This document shows, piece by piece, positions 21,268 through 28,866 of a DNA stretch of 64,000 bases (positions are counted from its first letter, which is position 1; each line of letters starts with the position of its first letter). Position numbers and translations under genes: made by a program. The notes beneath the pieces are model-generated. The model was not told the DNA's origin. It searched no databases and saw only the letters and a list, made by a program, of their open reading frames with translations. This stretch comes from a virus. The stretch lies in the IMG/VR virus record IMGVR_UViG_3300045988_131485; one strand, 5' to 3'.

Positions 21268-21358
21268 GGAGGGGTAATCCTAACTGGTAAGGAAGCAGTT
21301 TGCTAAACTGTTAGTAATCCGAAAGGGTGTGTGGGTTCGAGTCCCATCCCCTCCGCCA
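21268..21358 (+). tRNA. tRNA-Ser(GCU), CCA encoded
   Basis: GGAGGGG/CCCCTCC acceptor stem; anticodon arm GCAGT-TTGCTAA-ACTGT; long variable arm; T arm GTGGG-TTCGAGT-CCCAT; G-CCA 3-prime end. Confidence 0.9.
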
Positions 21359-21397
21359 AGCCGCAATAGCGGCGAACTCTTTATCACCTCCTCTCTC

Positions 21398-21437
21398 TGA
21401 CGGCGGGAAAGACCGCTGACGGCCCGGAAAGACGGGC
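21398..21437 (+). ncRNA. two tandem TGACGGC-hairpin elements with GAAAGA loops
   Basis: TGACGGCGGGAAAGACCGC and TGACGGCCCGGAAAGACGGGC; stems differ by compensatory changes. Confidence 0.4.
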
Positions 21438-21441
21438 GGCA

Positions 21442-21553
21442 TGGGAGCGTCCGGTGGCAGCTCATAACGTGTAATCGACGGTGGACACGCACAGCAATTT
21501 TACCTTGAAAGTCTGCAAAACTTTTGCTTACGGTTCGACTCCGTAGCTCCTAA
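21442..21553 (+). ncRNA. tRNA-Cys(GCA)-like RNA with inserted module and no drawable D arm
   Basis: The TGGGAGC 5-prime strand pairs with GCTCCTA at the 3-prime end; module at 21466-21497; canonical AAAGT-CTGCAAA-ACTTT anticodon arm; T arm TACGG-TTCGACT-CCGTA. Confidence 0.4.
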
Positions 21554-21728
21554 AAAACCGTCATCAATCTATAAGAAGGGTCGTGTGTGTCATGAAGAAG
21601 TTCCTGGCTATCGTTCTGTGATTCAAAGTGATCAGCGGCAGCGGCGTCCAGCGCCGGGTATGTGGAGAAAGCCATGAATAGAATACGAGACAAGCCCTAA
21701 GTCATCTTCGGATGACAGTACAGTAATG

Positions 21729-21774
21729 AATGCGACGATGAATGAACAGTAACGAATTGGGGCACTAACAGCAA
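21729..21774 (+). repeat. module copy outside a tRNA body
   Basis: AATGCG - 28 nt - CACTAACAGCAA. Confidence 0.4.
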
Positions 21775-21824
21775 CCATCAACATTACCTGCTTTGGAAAT
21801 GAGAATGTGTCCCGTACACGTGGC

Positions 21825-21836
21825 AAAGAGCCATTT
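21825..21836. repeat. left 12-bp inverted repeat of the inverted segment
   Basis: aaagagccattt; the reverse complement of 22973-22984. Confidence 0.7.
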
Positions 21837-25572: not shown

Positions 25573-25573
25573 T

Positions 25574-25592
25574 TAGTGGCAAAGTAAATTAA
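25574..25592 (+). repeat. leader motif copy
   Basis: TAGTGGCAAAGTAAATTAA, then cAAGGAG. Confidence 0.45.
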
Positions 25593-25607
25593 CAAGGAGT
25601 GAATATA

Positions 25608-27007
25608 ATGTATTGTGCCTATGTTACCAGGATTCACAATCTGAGGAAGCATACCAATGCCGACCGGCTGCTCTGTGGCGAATGTTTCGGTAATACGGTG
25701 ATTGTGGATCTCGGCACCGACCCTGATCAGCTGGGCGTGTACTTCCCTACCGATGGCAAACTCGGTTTGGAGTTCGCACAGAAGAATGACTTGCTGCGGC
25801 GCAAGGATGAGAACGGCGCTCCGGCTGGCGGATACCTTGACCCGGAGAAGCGGAATATTAAGGCTCTCAAGCTCCGGGGCGAGAAGAGCGACGGTCTGTT
25901 CCTCCCTCTCTCCTGTTTAGCTTCTTTTACCGATATCAAGAAGCTCCAAGAGGGCGATACGATCTCTGTGTTGAACGGTATCACTATCTGCGAGAAGTAC
26001 GTACCCGCCGTCAAACGCGCCTCCGGTAGTGGGGGGGTGGCAATCATGTTCGTAAGCGTTCTGATCCTATCTCCCCGCTCTTCCAAGAACACGCTGACAC
26101 GGAGCAGTTGGCCTACAACCTCTCCGCATTCCATGCTGGGGATCTGGTAGAAGTTACCCTGAAAATGCACGGAACTTCTCAGCGTACCGGCTATCTGCCT
26201 GTGTTGCAGGGCTATAAATATCGGAACCGTATGGAAAAGCGGCTCTATGAGAGTCGTAAGACCCCGAATGTGATTCGTTCCAAAATCAAGCGGGCACCCA
26301 TCTATGATTGGGGCTATGTTACCGGAACCCGCCGCGTGGTTCTGGATACCTTCGATGAGGGAGGCTTCTACGGTAATAACGCTTTCCGCGAAAAACACGC
26401 CAACGTCTTTGAAGGAAAGCTCCACAAGGGAGAGACGGTCTACTACGAGGTTGTTGGCTTCACTGACGATGGTACGCCCATCATGAATCCCGGAAACAAC
26501 TCTAAGCTGAACGACAAGGAGTTTACTAAACAGTACGGTAAAACCACCACATTCAGCTATGGCTGCGCTCCCGATGGTAAGGAACATCCCAAGTCCGATC
26601 TTTTCGTTTACCGCATGACAATGACCAACGAAGACGGTGATGTGGTGGAGTATCCGCCCGACTTTATGCGCTATCGTTGCGAACAGATGGGCGTCAAATG
26701 CGTCCAAGTGTTCTGCCGCACTATCATCCCGGACTTCTACCAGCTCCCCGACGATGTTGGATCTCCGCAGGCAGTGAACGCCGGCGAGTATGTGAAGAAG
26801 CTGGCTGAGAATTTCTACGACGGCCCCGATCCTGTCGGCCATACCCATGTTCGGGAAGGTGTCGTGTGCCGTATTGTCAACCGTCCCAAGTTCGCCGCCT
26901 ATAAGCATAAAAACTTTGCGTTCAAGGCGCTGGAGGGACTGATCAAAGACACCGCCGCCGCGCCTGATATGGAAGAAGCTCAGGATGTTGGAGAACAGAA
27001 TGGATGA
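25608..27007 (+). CDS. ATP-dependent RNA ligase (N-terminal OB-like domain plus nucleotidyltransferase domain), reading frame broken at a G7 run
   Basis: Frame 1 runs 25608-26037 and frame 2 continues ..GGNHVRKRSDPISPLFQEHADTEQL...VTLKMHGTSQR (ligase motif I). One extra G in 26031-26037 joins the two frames. Confidence 0.7.
26031..26037 (+). repeat. G7 homopolymer at the RNA ligase frame break
   Basis: agtGGGGGGGtgg; a -1 shift or +1 nt restores the ORF. Confidence 0.9.
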
Positions 27008-27116
27008 AAAAGTCGTTTTTGGCTTTATCAACAACTTCAAAGCTGGGCAGATATGGAGCAGCTTGACTCAAGCCTATACCGGAGAATGATCCGGGATTGT
27101 ATCAAAAAGGAGCGAT

Positions 27117-27950
27117 ATGACGATGACGACTTTGATCCAGAATGAGCAGAAGCGCCAGAAGATTATGGCGCGGATGCGGGAACATCTGGTGCCCGTCTTG
27201 GAGCATTGCAGGGGAGGCTGGGTCGGCCTCTTCCTGCAAGGTTCTCAGAATTATAACCTTGACTATGAGGGTAGCGATATTGACACCAAGGCAATCATGT
27301 TGCCCAGCTTTTCCGATTTCGTGTTGAACGCCAAACCTCTCAGCACTACCCACATTATGGAGAATAACGAACACGTGGATTTCAAAGACATCCGCCTCAT
27401 GTTTGACTGTATCAAGAAGCAGAATGTCAACTTTGTTGAGATCCTGTTCACCCCTTACTCCATCATCAACCCGGAGTATGCCGATCTTTTCCAGCCTGTT
27501 CTGGACGCTCGTGAAGAGATTGCCCGATACAACAACTACGCCGGGATGAACTGCATTATGGGTATGGCTCTGGAAAAGCAAAAGGCAATGGAGCACCCCT
27601 ACCCTGCCACAATGGACAAGATTGAGGCATTTGGGTATGACCCGAAGCAGCTTCACCATGCTCTGCGGCTGCGGGAGTTTATGACCCGTTACGAAGCCGG
27701 CGAGCCTTACGCTGACTGTCTTATCAGTAACCAGTGTGATTATCTCAAAGAGGTGAAGCGCGGTTGCTACTCTTTGAAAGAAGCACGGGCACTGATGAGC
27801 ACTGCAATTCAATCTATGACCGAAGACAAAAAGCGCTATATGGATACGGTGTCTGTTTCGATCAACCAGCACGCCAATGAGGTACTGCAAAAGGCTACCG
27901 TTGAAATTCTCAAACGATCCTTCTTAAAGGAAATCCAAGGAGGAGAATGA
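27117..27950 (+). CDS. Pol-beta-superfamily nucleotidyltransferase (RlaP-like, RNA-ligase-associated)
   Basis: LQGSQNYNLDYEGSDIDTKAI (GS..D.D motif) plus a helical C-terminal region with KQLHHALRL; AAGGAG SD. Confidence 0.6.
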   Translation: MTMTTLIQNEQKRQKIMARMREHLVPVLEHCRGGWVGLFLQGSQNYNLDYEGSDIDTKAIMLPSFSDFVLNAKPLSTTHIMENNEHVDFKDIRLMFDCIKKQNVNFVEILFTPYSIINPEYADLFQPVLDAREEIARYNNYAGMNCIMGMALEKQKAMEHPYPATMDKIEAFGYDPKQLHHALRLREFMTRYEAGEPYADCLISNQCDYLKEVKRGCYSLKEARALMSTAIQSMTEDKKRYMDTVSVSINQHANEVLQKATVEILKRSFLKEIQGGE

Positions 27951-27951
27951 G

Positions 27952-28866
27952 ATGCCGATGTTTTACATGATGGTTGGCCTCCCTGGTAGCGGGAAGTCAT
28001 TCACTGCCGAAAGCATCCCTAACGCCGTCGTCCACTCCAGCGATGCGATCCGTGCCGAAGTTCTTGGTGACGAGAACGACCAAACCCAACAGGACTTGGT
28101 TTTCCAAACCCTTCACAAAAGGGTTTTGCAGGATCTGGTGGATGGCAAGGATGTGGTGTACGACGCAACCAATATCAACTACAAGCGCCGTATCGGATTC
28201 CTTGATCGTATCCGAGCGCTCCACAAACATGATTTGCGTACAGTATGTCTTTTCATGGCGACGCCCTATGAGGTGTGTTTGGAGCGCAACAATAATCGGG
28301 AACGTTCTGTCCCGGAGTCTGTAATCCAAAAGATGTACTTCAAATTCGATGTTCCTATGATGGCAGAGGGTTGGGATGAAATCAGGATCGTGGGTGACGA
28401 AGATCGCCACGACCAGATTGATACCCTTATGCTTCGTCTCTCCAAGCTGGAACATGATAACCCGCACCATGAGTACACGGTTGGTCAGCACTCTATGACG
28501 GCATGGCAGTATCTGATCAGCCACTATAAAGGTGCCGATGCTGCTCTGCTCCGCGCCACGCTGTTGCACGATATTGGCAAAGAAAAGACTAAAGTATTTC
28601 ATAACATCAAAGGCAACCCCACTGAGATCGCCCACTTCTATCATCATGAGCGTGTAGGAGCTTATGACAGCTTCTGCTATACCGGCGATCTCAGTCCTAA
28701 CCAGCGCCTTACTGTGGCGCTGCTGATCCGCTGGCATATGTGGCCGTATGCGGTTGAAAAGTCAGATAATCCGAGTAAGACGGTTAGCAAAATCAAACGT
28801 CTGCTTGGTAATGATATCTGGAACCAGGTCATGGTGTTGAACGCCTGTGACCGCAATGCACACTGA
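27952..28866 (+). CDS. P-loop (polynucleotide) kinase fused to an HD phosphohydrolase domain
   Basis: MVGLPGSGKSF Walker A; LLHDIGKE and HHERVG HD-type motifs. Confidence 0.7.
   Translation: MPMFYMMVGLPGSGKSFTAESIPNAVVHSSDAIRAEVLGDENDQTQQDLVFQTLHKRVLQDLVDGKDVVYDATNINYKRRIGFLDRIRALHKHDLRTVCLFMATPYEVCLERNNNRERSVPESVIQKMYFKFDVPMMAEGWDEIRIVGDEDRHDQIDTLMLRLSKLEHDNPHHEYTVGQHSMTAWQYLISHYKGADAALLRATLLHDIGKEKTKVFHNIKGNPTEIAHFYHHERVGAYDSFCYTGDLSPNQRLTVALLIRWHMWPYAVEKSDNPSKTVSKIKRLLGNDIWNQVMVLNACDRNAH
28782..28817 (+). promoter_or_regulatory. possible internal copy of early-type repeat
   Basis: GGTTAGCAAA-N13-TTGGTAATGATAT inside the 3-prime end of the kinase-HD CDS, 65 nt before the next start. Confidence 0.25.

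Follow-up and report, generated by a model that had tools for sequence, protein, structure and literature searches.

The window, a 64-kb stretch of DNA (IMGVR_UViG_3300045988_131485), includes the tRNA and RNA-maintenance region of a phage or prophage infecting gut Oscillospiraceae. Every gene listed in the original prediction, which had proposed an RNA-repair cassette built around a scaffold and tRNA-like RNAs, was found at or near its given position. In the uninverted form, the block is a single co-oriented array in which tRNA-Ser is followed by four module-bearing tRNA genes and a Ro60-fold DUF2828+vWA protein, and downstream of DUF2828 by a NifS-like desulfurase, an Rnl5-like RNA ligase, an RlaP-like nucleotidyltransferase, and a kinase-HD healing enzyme. 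In the window, a 1.16-kb inversion bounded by 12-bp inverted repeats breaks the DUF2828 gene in two. Features are as follows (R1 is a covariance model).

21185..21218, plus: solo ACAGCAA motif (GCGCUAACAGCAAUUUU), ~50 nt upstream of tRNA-Ser and without the canonical hairpin (R1 15 bits, E 0.13; exact ACAGCAA at 21208)
21268..21358, plus: canonical tRNA-Ser(GCU), CCA encoded (ARAGORN; Rfam tRNA 50.7 bits)
21442..21552, plus: insert-bearing type D, Cys(GCA)-like, module 21463-21501 (R1 21.5 bits, E 0.0011)
21738..21778, plus: degenerate module copy (AAUGCG ... GCACUAACAGCAAC) without tRNA context (R1 12.2 bits, E 1; exact ACAGCAA at 21768)
21825..21836, unstranded: left arm of the inverted repeat, AAAGAGCCATTT, the left inversion junction (repeat search)
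21825..22043, minus: DUF2828 5' fragment, residues 1-73, moved to this strand by the inversion (MSNF...MAMKWLF; Pfam DUF2828 profile positions 1-52)
22095..22101, minus: ACAGCAA in the DUF2828 mRNA leader, helix-enclosed (GGGCA.../...UGUCC; exact motif)
22117..22240, minus: insert-bearing type C, loop 3' side AAGCCAA (possibly Gly GCC), module 22167-22204 (Rfam tRNA 49.5 bits; R1 23.2 bits, E 3.4e-4)
22380..22496, minus: insert-bearing type B (Asn GUU), module 22429-22464 (Rfam tRNA 46.3 bits; R1 26.8 bits, E 2.4e-5)
22765..22888, minus: insert-bearing type A, module 22808-22854 with motif variant ACAGCUA (Rfam tRNA 49.8 bits; R1 23.1 bits, E 3.5e-4)
22904..22938, minus: weak module-like copy (GCAGACAGCAAUG) in the loop of hairpin UGGGAGG/CCUCCCA (R1 9.6 bits, E 6.6; exact ACAGCAA at 22914)
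22973..22984, unstranded: right arm of the inverted repeat, AAATGGCTCTTT, codons K-W-L-F of DUF2828, the right junction (repeat search)
22973..24322, plus: DUF2828 3' part with Ro60-like HEAT ring and vWA (DUF7788), corresponding to residues 70-518 of the intact protein
24406..25572, plus: NifS/IscS-like cysteine desulfurase (Pfam Aminotran_5 E 4.4e-68; TIGR03402 NifS E 5.7e-102)
25608..27007, plus: ATP-dependent RNA ligase with N-terminal OB domain, Rnl5/DRB0094-like (both halves match phrog_968 'RNA ligase')
27117..27950, plus: Pol-beta-type nucleotidyltransferase, divergent RlaP (phrog_388 E 3.3e-15)
27952..28866, plus: polynucleotide-kinase-like P-loop with C-terminal HD phosphoesterase, predicted end healing (AAA_33 E 5.6e-19; HD E 6.2e-5)
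28883..29341, plus: conserved 152-aa protein of no family, block member in 27 loci (synteny)
29409..30383, plus: PP-loop ATPase, PAPS-reductase family (Pfam PAPS_reduct E 2.6e-20; phrog_424 E 1.7e-52; weak TtcA E 3e-4)
62784..63722, plus: Thg1-like 3'-5' nucleotidyltransferase (Pfam Thg1 E 2.9e-30)

The gene set itself is of an already known kind. Profile searches (Pfam, PHROG, TIGR), and Foldseek for the scaffold, place the cassette proteins in the predicted families: a TROVE-related vWA scaffold, an ATP-dependent RNA ligase, an RNA-ligase-associated nucleotidyltransferase, a P-loop kinase-HD fusion, and a Thg1-like enzyme. The 3' part of DUF2828 matches Pfam DUF7788 (E 1.4e-42) and DUF2828 (E 4e-24) as well as phrog_850 'RNA-binding protein' (E 5.5e-126). 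When an AF2 model of an intact orthologue (pLDDT 79) was searched against the PDB, the five top matches were all Ro60/TROVE (including 9kop at E 1.7e-8, 9nen, 1yvr, and 2i91). The closest, 9KOP, is phiRo60 from a Thermus phage; the Y-like RNAs to which it binds are encoded upstream of its own gene (PMC12135203). The Y RNAs of bacterial Ro60 are tRNA mimics, encoded on the same strand within 4 kb (PMC4201824).

The ligase carries motif I KMHGTS and occupies two frames because the G run at 26031-26037 is G7 in the window versus G8, with a single open frame, in most relatives. Once frame-corrected, it matches TIGR02306 at E 9.5e-11, under the model cutoff, and its OB region weakly matches Naegleria RNA ligase (5cot/6vt*). 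We take this ligase family to seal nicks in duplex RNA. The nucleotidyltransferase has GSQNYNLDYEGSDID; four of 11 orthologues match RlaP (PF10127; best E 6.6e-5), and the window's own copy has no Pfam match. In the kinase-HD protein, the kinase region resembles bacterial Pnkp (TIGR04075, E 2.8e-17) and the HD region that of CCA-adding enzymes (E 3e-7). The desulfurase, overlooked in the original prediction, lies between scaffold and ligase, as it does in 30 related loci, and the PP-loop ATPase is possibly its thiolation partner. The Thg1-like gene is 34 kb from the block in the window, and more distant relatives have it 2.6-2.8 kb from DUF2828. Profile searches assign no family to the 152-aa protein, and its low-confidence AF2 model has no structural match; neither these searches across the block nor that model revealed an endonuclease. 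Gene order is conserved in ~27 loci by synteny comparison, and at least 47 of the 60 contigs with the closest DUF2828 encode the ligase as well. Many loci have DUF2828 and modules without a ligase within 8 kb.

The predicted tRNA and tRNA-like RNAs are likewise present. The tRNA-Ser(GCU) leads the cluster in most relatives. Three minus-strand matches to Rfam tRNA (117-124 nt, 46-50 bits; type C is matched over 22120-22240) each have the anticodon arm interrupted by an insert of ~55 nt, at a site that varies among types (26/27, 28/29, 31/32). The type A insert is directly 3' of the 5' strand of the anticodon stem, and its loop is AUGGGGA (Pro GGG) in relatives versus AAAGGGA in the window. The type B insert separates nt 28 and 29 within the stem; its deletion restores CG+GGA / CUGUUAA / UCCCG, a perfect 5-bp stem and loop that ARAGORN calls Asn(GUU). 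Across type B orthologues, the stem changes in compensatory fashion and Y32-U33-NNN-A37-A38 is kept while the anticodon varies. Type C has an encoded CCA and G1-C72, C2-G71, G3-C70, U73, C35, and C36, presumably the bacterial GlyRS identity set. Type D escaped ARAGORN and Rfam and was recovered by R1; its acceptor stem and T arm are accompanied by an atypical D region, and a full anticodon arm (AAAGU-CUGCAAA-ACUUU) lies 3' of the module. With its insert deleted in silico, 64 of 67 ARAGORN calls were tRNA-Cys(GCA).

The inserts share a module of ~45 nt located 5' of the anticodon, comprising an A-rich lead and a 7-bp hairpin, with 2 nt between the hairpin and single-stranded ACAGCAA(U). All seven hairpin pairs show compensatory changes. 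Double changes occur in 82 of 224 cells in a set selected for full pairing and in 149 of 470 cells among 70 model-aligned matches from bacterial genome contigs, in which 96.8% of cells pair. No shuffle scored as high, and slid controls paired at 33-58%. G-U pairs are frequent (~38 of 224 and 56 of 470 cells) and would be C-A mismatches on the opposite strand, which argues that the module acts at the RNA level. On this pattern of covariation, we regard the module as real.

Significant R1 matches occur only beside DUF2828. There are 191 in 124 viral and bacterial loci, all on the DUF2828 strand (111/111 in 44 viral loci; 80/80 in 80 genome loci) and all but one within ~2.5 kb upstream of the gene, a relationship that holds down to ~41% protein identity. 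Conversely, an RNA-side scan with the module retrieved DUF2828 genes of 33-63% identity. In the window, the six best R1 matches all fall in 21185-22854, with no match of E <1 elsewhere, and seven of 18 exact ACAGCAA copies lie in one 1.75-kb stretch around the module cluster, a concentration beyond chance. ACAGCAA is also within 150 nt in 89 of 139 unique DUF2828 leaders (background 0.08 per 150 nt), and the leader architecture, GAACAC-NN-ACAGCAA...GUGUUC, is kept in relatives. The predicted pairing of insert-bearing tRNA-like genes with the cassette is borne out by modules found only beside DUF2828; its second element, an invertible break, is not supported as a built-in feature. We found no published description of a hairpin-plus-ACAGCAA tag beside DUF2828 in phages of several bacterial phyla.

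ACAGCAA is likewise present on the flanks of DUF2828 in most of eight loci from cultured phages (E. coli wV8, Listeria LP-064, Mycobacterium Appletree2, Bacillus PBC2, Staphylococcus, Enterococcus, Vibrio, and Cronobacter S13), which infect members of Bacillota, Actinomycetota, and Pseudomonadota. Counted by eye, ~24 copies are on the DUF2828 strand versus one on the opposite strand. Most are in spacers or small helix-enclosed RNAs rather than within tRNAs, so splicing cannot be the general function of the motif. In Appletree2, the RNA beside DUF2828 is a permuted T-acceptor-D tRNA mimic flanked by GCAGCAAU.

We suggest that the module is probably the cognate RNA of a Ro-like/Y-RNA-like particle with which heal-and-seal enzymes are associated. 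The helix-plus-ACAGCAA (hairpin-NN-ACAGCAAU, GCAA core) is quite likely to be where the Ro-like protein docks, a role that in Y RNAs falls to the GNCGAA/CGAA stem bound by Ro60. Every tagged tRNA would then itself be a built-in Y-RNA-like partner, and ACAGCAA in the DUF2828 leader would provide feedback. More tentatively, and with rather less than even confidence, the ring may keep hold of the anticodon arm during excision of the module, after which the kinase-HD protein would heal the ends, RlaP repair them where a nucleotide is missing, and the nick-sealing-type ligase join across the anticodon stem, yielding decoding tRNAs. The same enzymes could also mend tRNAs cleaved by host anticodon nucleases. 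Removal of the module is favored by the arm regained in type B and the loop kept in its orthologues, by the presumed glycine identity set and CCA of type C, and by a type B junction inside a helix, given a ligase family that we take to act on duplex RNA. This explanation is weakened by the lack of an endonuclease in the block, the variable insert position, and the loci in which modules and DUF2828 lack a nearby ligase. It is weakened further because types A and C have no U33 in the 7 nt 5' of the 3' stem strand, U33 and R37 are both present in only 69 of 127 sequences, and no insert-free orthologue of the insert-bearing tRNAs was found.

Several of these points would suit tRNAs that are never spliced and mature into Y-RNA-like mimics, a reading we consider doubtful but well short of negligible. 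The module would bind the Ro-like ring, and the tRNA body would recruit tRNA-binding enzymes (ligase, RlaP, Thg1, host PNPase) or decoy host anticodon nucleases. Bacterial and mycobacteriophage Y RNAs are non-decoding tRNA mimics (PMC4201824), as is the Appletree2 RNA, and phiRo60 with Yrl RNAs captures host PNPase (PMC12135203). The missing nuclease, the absence of U33 from types A and C, and the shifting insert site are also consistent with mimicry. However, known Y RNAs keep less tRNA character than the insert-bearing tRNAs here, whose acceptor, D, and T arms get scores typical of ordinary tRNAs. Each type conserves an anticodon loop of its own, canonical in type B and many relatives, and type C retains its presumed glycine identity and CCA.

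It is improbable that the helix-adjoining ACAGCAA is a processing or transcription signal of tRNA operons (RNase cleavage site, promoter, or terminator element) that accompanies DUF2828 merely because the gene resides in tRNA arrays. Such a role would account for solo copies in tRNA spacers of Bacillus PBC2 and wV8 and upstream of the window's tRNA-Ser, and in wV8 the motif sits between TTTACA/TTGACA and an A/T-rich hexamer. Yet the motif is common to phages of three phyla whose hosts differ in RNases and promoters. In 124 loci with many ordinary tRNAs, it keeps to the DUF2828 side and strand; it recurs in the DUF2828 leader and, in the stretch of Appletree2 shown, beside DUF2828 without an annotated tRNA. 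A scan of the window region for promoters and terminators found no more of them than shuffled sequences yield.

That the inserts are small selfish elements (miniature introns/MITE-like) spread among phage tRNA genes and merely tolerated by repair enzymes is highly unlikely. Several copies per genome at differing anticodon-arm positions, degenerate solo copies, and the highly conserved 'enigmatic' introns of Lak megaphage tRNAs (bioRxiv 10.1101/356790) would agree with it, but copies within a genome differ in hairpin sequence and are strictly tied to one protein gene. Moreover, types A, B, and C are each fixed in the same tRNA and order down to ~55% DUF2828 identity, with compensatory changes, implying long vertical inheritance under selection instead of recent spread.

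The inversion in the scaffold gene is a real event, since one further, non-identical metagenome contig carries the same junctions; relative to three related loci (L001, L003, and L009; blastn), the strand of alignment flips exactly at 21825..21836. The original prediction had treated this break as an invertible feature, and a programmed switch turning the Ro-like protein and three tRNAs on and off might be read from the clean junctions at a perfect repeat, their presence in two contigs, and an inverted segment more similar to L001, which is uninverted (99.7%), than to the second inverted contig (96.7%). A gene 1 kb upstream has a weak tyrosine-recombinase core-binding match (MrpR_N_CB, E 0.005), but Pfam and PHROG searches found no catalytic recombinase domain in its product, and no invertase was identified. 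Fragment 1-73 is contiguous with the remainder of DUF2828 in 80 of 80 viral relatives, none inverted, the gene is intact in bacterial genome contigs too, and the junction sequence is absent from IMG/VR. The repeat, one arm of which is merely the K-W-L-F codons, is restricted to a close clade, which argues against a designed switch, and other 52-nt stretches of the gene have 9-14 nt reverse-complement matches in the same upstream region by chance. A switch is accordingly very improbable. With the scaffold inverted and the ligase frameshifted, two genes of the block are broken in the window, so there are at least some settings in which the block can be done without.

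The over-long tRNA genes of the window carry a real RNA element, a hairpin followed by a short motif, that is exclusively associated with genes of the DUF2828 family. The features of this part of the window, together with the distant Thg1 gene, are:

21268-21358, plus strand: canonical tRNA-Ser(GCU) (ARAGORN, Rfam)
21442-21552, plus strand: Cys(GCA)-like tRNA-like gene (type D) enclosing an RNA module at 21463-21501 (covariance model R1)
22120-22240, 22380-22496 and 22765-22888, minus strand: insert-bearing tRNA matches of 117-124 nt (types C, B and A, respectively; Rfam tRNA, 46-50 bits)
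22043-21825, minus strand: DUF2828 residues 1-73 (ORF listing, Pfam)
22973-24322, plus strand: remainder of DUF2828 (ORF listing, Pfam)
24406-25572, plus strand: NifS-like cysteine desulfurase (Aminotran_5, E 4e-68; TIGR03402, E 6e-102)
3' of the desulfurase, plus strand: RNA ligase in two ORFs, both matching phrog_968 "RNA ligase"
27117-27950, plus strand: nucleotidyltransferase (phrog_388)
27952-28866, plus strand: P-loop kinase-HD fusion (AAA_33, E 5.6e-19; HD, E 6.2e-5)
3' of the kinase-HD gene, plus strand: conserved 152-aa protein without family match
29409-30383, plus strand: PAPS-reductase-family PP-loop ATPase with weak TtcA similarity
62784-63722, plus strand: Thg1 (Pfam Thg1, E 2.9e-30; Thg1C, E 0.0016)

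In each of the three minus-strand tRNAs, the anticodon arm is replaced or interrupted by about 55 nt. Reading 127 distinct long tRNAs of related loci revealed a common insert of constant order. An A-rich lead, in many cases AAAUG, precedes a 7-bp hairpin, and a spacer of exactly 2 nt separates the hairpin from ACAGCAA. The next nucleotide is usually U, and ACUGCAA, ACCGCAA, GCAGCAA, and ACAGCUA occur as variants of the motif. Several pair types occur at each hairpin pair in an alignment of 32 sequences selected for full pairing. Across 70 distinct matches from bacterial genome contigs, aligned with R1 and independent of its training set, 96.8% of cells are paired and 149 of 470 show compensatory double changes. 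Compensatory changes occur at 7/7 hairpin pairs; shuffles never attain such values, and pairing in slid controls is 33-58%. G-U pairs occupy about one of seven to eight hairpin cells, a frequency which implies that the hairpin forms on the sense strand only and points to an element acting at the RNA level.

Within the window, R1 identifies four significant copies, three inside Rfam-called tRNAs and the fourth at 21463-21501, as well as three weaker remnants, and no match with E below 1 beyond 21185-22854. A permissive Rfam scan of 21000-23200 returned tRNA only, with a plastid UTR family at E 0.76 taken as chance; since the module RNAs match no Rfam family besides tRNA, a known self-cleaving ribozyme or intron is not supported. 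Counts from a promoter and terminator scan of the region are no higher than those of shuffles. Pairing of ACAGCAA with the anticodon loop of tRNA-Ser(GCU) (UUGCU) was considered and dropped because just GCAA is retained in the variants ACUGCAA and ACCGCAA. The tRNA region is also an indel hotspot. In comparisons with loci L010, L012, L013, and L201, the 264-nt spacer between the type B and type A tRNAs (22498-22761) is missing from several close relatives, and L010 and L201 have about 430 nt extra beside tRNA-Ser. The stretch 21553-21836 is GC-rich and free of tRNA features, and includes a degenerate module and a UUCG-capped hairpin, GUCAUCUUCGGAUGAC, at about 21700-21715; it may be a further structured RNA.

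Location and orientation of the module correlate with the DUF2828 gene. Over both strands of 44 diverse viral loci, 728 kb in total, R1 gives 111 matches at E up to 0.01, all on the DUF2828 strand, and the modules precede the gene by about 40 nt to 2.1 kb. All 80 matches in 80 loci from GTDB genomes (885 kb) are likewise on that strand, all modules but one lie no more than 2.5 kb upstream, and the pattern is kept to about 41% protein identity. Together, 191/191 matches are on the gene strand. Long tRNAs called by ARAGORN enclose 37 of 42 inspected matches. Scanning for the RNA pattern itself (TAACAGCAA, a gap, and GGTTCGA) recovered 22 genuine long tRNAs, with the remaining matches mostly due to chance, and the short stretches fetched brought DUF2828 genes of 33-63% identity. 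The motif also has a second topology, in the DUF2828 mRNA leader, where the 5' strand of a helix is followed by 2 nt, ACAGCAA, a loop, and the 3' strand of the helix. It is found within 150 nt in 89 of 139 distinct leaders (some of these in the insert of the last tRNA) against a background of 0.08 per 150 nt.

The predicted structure of the DUF2828 protein has a Ro60 fold. For the intact orthologue P0001, which is 97% identical to the restored window protein, the AF2 model (mean pLDDT 79) has HEAT-like repeats arranged in a ring, with a vWA/MIDAS domain after them. In Foldseek, the top five PDB matches of this model are without exception Ro60/TROVE rings, aligned over the full length. The best is phiRo60 of a Thermus phage (9KOP; E 1.7e-8, TM 0.54-0.59), and the other top matches include human Ro60 and Xenopus Ro with and without misfolded RNA. 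At the sequence level, DUF2828 and DUF7788 are matched and Pfam TROVE is not, and a profile compared with PDB sequences reaches phiRo60 only marginally (9kop, E 0.46). As to the host, isolate genomes with 96%-identical copies belong to the Oscillospiraceae Hominicoprocola fusiformis and Dysosmobacter segnis.

Known systems provide precedents for a Ro60-like protein and a nearby cognate RNA. phiRo60 of Thermus phage phiLo binds two Y-like RNAs, encoded upstream, through a CGAA motif (PMC12135203). Like phiRo60 (PDB 9KOP, 9L5Y; PMC12135203), the system described here combines a phage Ro60-fold ring and vWA protein with candidate small RNA partners encoded just upstream in the orientation of the gene, and both systems have a short conserved motif, single-stranded and beside a helix, which phiRo60 requires for binding. 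In contrast, the motif there is CGAA rather than ACAGCAA, the partners Yrl1 and Yrl2 are stand-alone stem-bulge RNAs rather than tRNAs, and the effector is host PNPase; linked ligase, kinase, or nucleotidyltransferase genes are not mentioned in the available portion of that paper (PMC12135203). Bacterial Y RNAs are located no more than 4 kb from rsr on the same strand and mimic tRNA (PMC4201824), and in Salmonella, rsr and Y RNAs are paired with RtcB and RtcA in an rsr-yrlBA-rtcBA operon (PMC7790460). As with Rsr and YrlA/YrlB, the window has a Ro-type ring, tRNA-like RNAs nearby on the same strand, and an RNA ligase, and the candidate partner has T, D, and acceptor arms. In YrlA, however, a T arm, a closed acceptor, and a D arm follow one another in permuted order, and its two ends pair into the Ro-binding stem that carries GNCGAAN0-1G, whereas the RNAs here have normal tRNA order, free acceptor ends, and an anticodon loop, and their anticodon-arm insert is the candidate protein site. 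Where the Salmonella operon has RtcB, the block has an ATP-dependent, Rnl5-like ligase. In place of the Y RNA stem (GGUCCGA / GNCGAAN0-1G), the conserved element is a local 7-bp hairpin (or an enclosing helix), 2 nt, and ACAGCAA(U), and GNCGAA was not seen on reading the sequences. Because of the precedents of phiRo60 and its Yrl RNAs, bacterial Y RNAs, and the Salmonella rsr operon, we infer that the hairpin-NN-ACAGCAA element is the probable binding site of DUF2828. Its core, C-N-G-C-A-A, differs from the G-N-C-G-A-A of Ro60 partners and may reflect a change of specificity.

The DUF2828 family extends to at least 702 cultured phage records, 697 of which cover at least 80% of the query, with 30-41% identity among the matches listed, and to thousands of metagenomic proteins. 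Members from cultured phages have DUF2828 and DUF7788 (Pfam), and the records are annotated as "RNA-binding protein" or "Ro-like RNA binding protein". Like the window, the mycobacteriophage "Ro-like" genes and those of FelixO1-like phages, Herelleviridae, and other cultured phages ("RNA-binding protein") have ACAGCAA nearby on the gene strand. Counted by eye across eight cultured phage loci, the gene strand has about 24 copies of the motif, usually as AAAGRCAC-NN-ACAGCAAU, and the opposite strand has one. Copies number three upstream of the gene in Listeria LP-064, six in tRNA-array spacers of Bacillus PBC2, three downstream in a Staphylococcus phage, three between tRNAs in E. coli wV8, and two in an Enterococcus phage. 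Three more flank a YrlA-type tRNA mimic with permuted T-acceptor-D order in Mycobacterium Appletree2. There, the mimic (T arm, closed acceptor, D arm) lies in a 360-nt gap past the Ro-like gene (L284 5460-5700) and is flanked by ACAGCAAU, GCAGCAAU, and ACAGCAAU; GNCGAA was not seen when this gap was read by eye. Unlike the window, cultured DUF2828 phages have the motif in stand-alone helix-enclosed RNAs, tRNA-array spacers, or a YrlA-like RNA. Among those inspected, only the T4-like Cronobacter phage S13 has it inside tRNAs, as the variant UUCAGCA. Two annotated over-long tRNAs are directly 3' of DUF2828 in this cultured phage, a 121-nt "tRNA-Ser" and a 113-nt "tRNA-OTHER" (L289 4396-4638; NC_028773.1 132703-132945), and both have a variant module of hairpin CAAACU/AGUUUG, UA, and UUCAGCA. 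By our reading, the "tRNA-Ser" appears to be a mis-typed tRNA-Thr(GGU). In Listeria LP-064 (L283 6855-8066), an RtcB ligase is 1.3 kb downstream of DUF2828, so the scaffold is paired with differing ligase families across phages. Cronobacter S13, FelixO1/wV8, Listeria A511-like phages, Bacillus PBC2, and mycobacteriophages make the system available for test.

The gene content of the block that extends from the scaffold to the kinase-HD gene follows the logic of a heal-and-seal cassette. The original prediction listed a TROVE-related vWA protein, tRNA-like RNAs, a ligase, a nucleotidyltransferase, and a P-loop kinase-HD fusion, and these are present at or near 21268-28866; the desulfurase at 24406-25572 was missing from its list. 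The corrected ligase matches TIGR02306 (DRB0094/Rnl5) at E 9.5e-11 and 41 bits, relative to a cutoff of 151, from the OB domain through motif I. Motifs KMHGTS, REGVV, and KHK can be read in its sequence, and its nucleotidyltransferase domain exceeds that of the Rnl5 family by about 130 aa. Its OB domain matches Pfam PHA02142 weakly. Sequence searches of the PDB were weak for the ligase (OB domain of Naegleria RNA ligase, E 0.09-0.19), void for the nucleotidyltransferase, and marginal for the DUF2828 profile. The window nucleotidyltransferase has no Pfam match even at E 10, and 4 of 11 orthologues match RlaP (PF10127; best E 6.6e-5); it has the motif GS...DID and is directly 3' of the ligase in all block-bearing loci. 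The predicted kinase-HD fusion was borne out by AAA_33, HD (23.7 bits, cutoff 22), and the kinase region of bacterial Pnkp (E 2.8e-17), and the residues GLPGSGKS and HD of a P-loop kinase and a phosphoesterase were read in the sequence. Its domain order, kinase then HD, is the reverse of that in Runella HD-Pnk. The catalytic domain of Thg1 confirms the repair enzyme proposed for the far end of the window.

The order DUF2828, NifS, ligase, RlaP, kinase-HD, 152-aa protein, and PP-loop ATPase is kept in about 27 loci. In further relatives, the trio of ligase, RlaP, and kinase-HD is 6-17 kb off on the same contig, and at least 47 of the 60 closest DUF2828 contigs have the ligase. The contiguous block of the three enzymes was seen in a phage clade of Oscillospiraceae only. 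The desulfurase and the PP-loop ATPase suggest phage-encoded tRNA thiolation. Between the DUF2828 stop and the NifS start, an inverted repeat with 19-nt arms followed by a T run (24338-24398) looks like a terminator dividing the tRNA-scaffold unit from the enzyme genes; its 23-nt loop explains why the simple terminator scan did not call it.

The insert is invariably 5' of the anticodon, and its position within the arm varies among tRNA types. In type B, it comes after nt 28 and divides the 5' strand of the anticodon stem; its removal leaves CG+GGA / CUGUUAA / UCCCG (Asn). Orthologues of type B have compensatory stem changes and varied anticodons (GUU, UUU, GCU, GGU, GUC, UGU, and others) and keep Y32-U33-NNN-A37-A38. 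In type D, a complete anticodon arm comes after the insert, and types A and C have it after the full 5' strand of the stem. The 7 nt before the 3' strand are AUGGGGA in relatives and AAAGGGA in the window for type A, and AAGCCAA for type C, so U33 is often absent. Overall, U33 and R37 occur at a fixed distance from the T arm in 69 of 127 sequences versus 4-33 in shifted controls. Type C has G1-C72, C2-G71, G3-C70, U73, C35, and C36, which we take to be the bacterial tRNA-Gly identity set, and encodes CCA. A 45-nt branch in the anticodon arm is not expected to permit decoding, and these tRNA-like constraints suggest that the module is removed from the tRNAs.

If so, the exons could be joined by the adjacent heal-and-seal enzymes. 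T4 Pnkp and Rnl1 mend breaks in anticodon loops with a kinase, a phosphoesterase, and an ATP-dependent ligase, and the heal-and-seal logic of fungal Trl1 splices protein-cut introns. The block shares this logic as predicted from its genes, with the differences that its ligase is of another family (Rnl5-like, with an N-terminal OB domain), its phosphoesterase is HD rather than DxDxT or 2H, it also has a Ro-like scaffold and an RlaP enzyme, a cutting enzyme was not found among its proteins, and splicing is putative. To our knowledge, protein-only tRNA splicing is not otherwise known in bacteria. It is conceivable, though we consider it rather unlikely, that phages of Bacillota and Pseudomonadota encode such splicing with the hairpin-ACAGCAA insert as intron. 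The Ro60-like ring would recognize the intron, a putative nuclease would excise it, the kinase-HD protein would heal the exons, and the Rnl5-like ligase would seal them across the anticodon stem. If true, phage tRNA supply would depend on the phage's own repair enzymes, and the "enigmatic" short introns of large phages would be accounted for. Tentatively, the tRNA introns of Lak megaphages may be related to the module: their tRNA genes too are over-long through short, highly conserved inserts, described as "enigmatic" and not group I, for which a motif, partner protein, or mechanism was not proposed (bioRxiv 10.1101/356790).

Nearly as likely as splicing is the alternative that the insert-bearing RNAs are permanent tRNA-shaped Y RNAs serving as tethers or decoys. 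Enumerating deletions and calling the products with ARAGORN was too permissive to fix a splice position and gave a clear result only for type B (Asn) and type D (Cys), and queries spliced in silico found no insert-free orthologues of the four tRNAs in related loci. No homologue of an endonuclease was found in the block. The 152-aa protein, tested as the nuclease, has no family match, its AF2 model has a pLDDT of 55, and Foldseek finds polo-box fragments only (best E 0.1). The failure to find a nuclease, a fixed splice position, or insert-free orthologues counts against splicing, as does the location of the motif outside tRNAs in most cultured phages. A group I intron or a protein-spliced intron of known type does not fit because the inserts are short (40-60 nt, whereas a group I core needs >200 nt), gave no match to introns or ribozymes in Rfam even with E allowed up to 1, show no bulge-helix-bulge at their borders in minimum-energy folds, and lie by a block in which no endonuclease homologue was found.

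The window has two lesions. A perfect 12-bp inverted repeat (AAAGAGCCATTT at 21825-21836 and AAATGGCTCTTT at 22973-22984, the latter being the K-W-L-F codons) bounds a segment with the 5' DUF2828 fragment and three long tRNAs. In 80 of 80 related IMG/VR loci, including some 98-100% identical to the window, the segment is uninverted and the N-terminal part contiguous. In blastn alignments, the strand switch is clean and exactly at the repeats, and undoing the inversion orients all tRNAs and genes in the same direction. The inverted junction is absent from IMG/VR and occurs once in a metagenome collection, in ERZ809296 NODE_219, a distinct sequence that is 97-99% identical to the window and collinear through both junctions. 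A second, nonidentical contig with the same junctions indicates that the inversion is real and rules out an assembly artefact. Motif copies at 21762 and 22906 were rejected as recombination sites, since a junction between them would break the reading frame and blastn places the breakpoints at the KWLF repeat.

The original prediction regarded the break as invertible. A switch is contradicted by the 80 uninverted viral relatives, the single other inverted contig, and a repeat near chance length. The repeat is confined to a close clade, and the same upstream region also contains 9-14-nt reverse-complement matches to other 52-nt stretches of the gene. We conclude that the inversion is a microhomology-mediated rearrangement knocking out the scaffold gene and not a conserved switch. 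In the search for a dedicated recombinase, upstream genes gave a weak core-binding-domain match only. This is a conserved 305-aa protein (19883-20800) upstream of the tRNA cluster and present in 48 loci; it weakly matches the N-terminal core-binding domain of MrpR alone, no catalytic domain was detected, and it may be a regulator derived from a tyrosine recombinase. The second lesion divides a single ligase gene into two ORFs. At 26031-26037, the window has G7 and most relatives have G8 and a single frame of 466-470 aa (L007 has G9 and L017 G7), so that either homopolymer slippage or sequencing error caused the frameshift. Our verdict is that inversion and frameshift are incidental damage.

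The logic of the cassette is of an already described kind, for which a jumbo-phage survey cites Burroughs and Aravind 2016 (PMC7824862), and phage Ro60 homologues with Y-like RNAs are already known. In the literature searched, we found no description of hairpin-NN-ACAGCAA as a hallmark RNA of the DUF2828 branch or of its placement inside tRNA anticodon arms, and no cognate RNA on record for the DUF2828 "Ro-like" proteins; papers naming DUF2828 are unrelated, judged from titles and abstracts. A strand-specific, covarying element that tracks a gene across phyla is a concrete candidate ligand of DUF2828 to test. Its location in the anticodon arm means either that these phage tRNAs need a protein-dependent splicing step or that tRNA-shaped Y RNAs form a new class, and both bear on how phages protect or control translation amid tRNA-cleavage conflict. 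In practice, tRNA finders give insert-bearing genes arbitrary isotypes.

Flanking regions and relatives have further features. Past the block, 30407-35016 encodes a truncated FolD-like protein and an NAD-salvage set (isochorismatase/nicotinamidase-like, PRPP-synthetase-like, and NAMPT/NAPRTase). A 1041-aa fusion of N6-methylase and ResIII helicase (14928-19121) is followed by a minus-strand pair of ImmA/IrrE peptidase and XRE repressor, which fits a temperate element. In P0002, a DUF2828 protein of relatives (12 contigs, the longest 193 kb), a tyrosine integrase (PF00589) takes the place of the final ~35 residues, and thus some relatives carry an integrating element in the 3' end of the scaffold gene.
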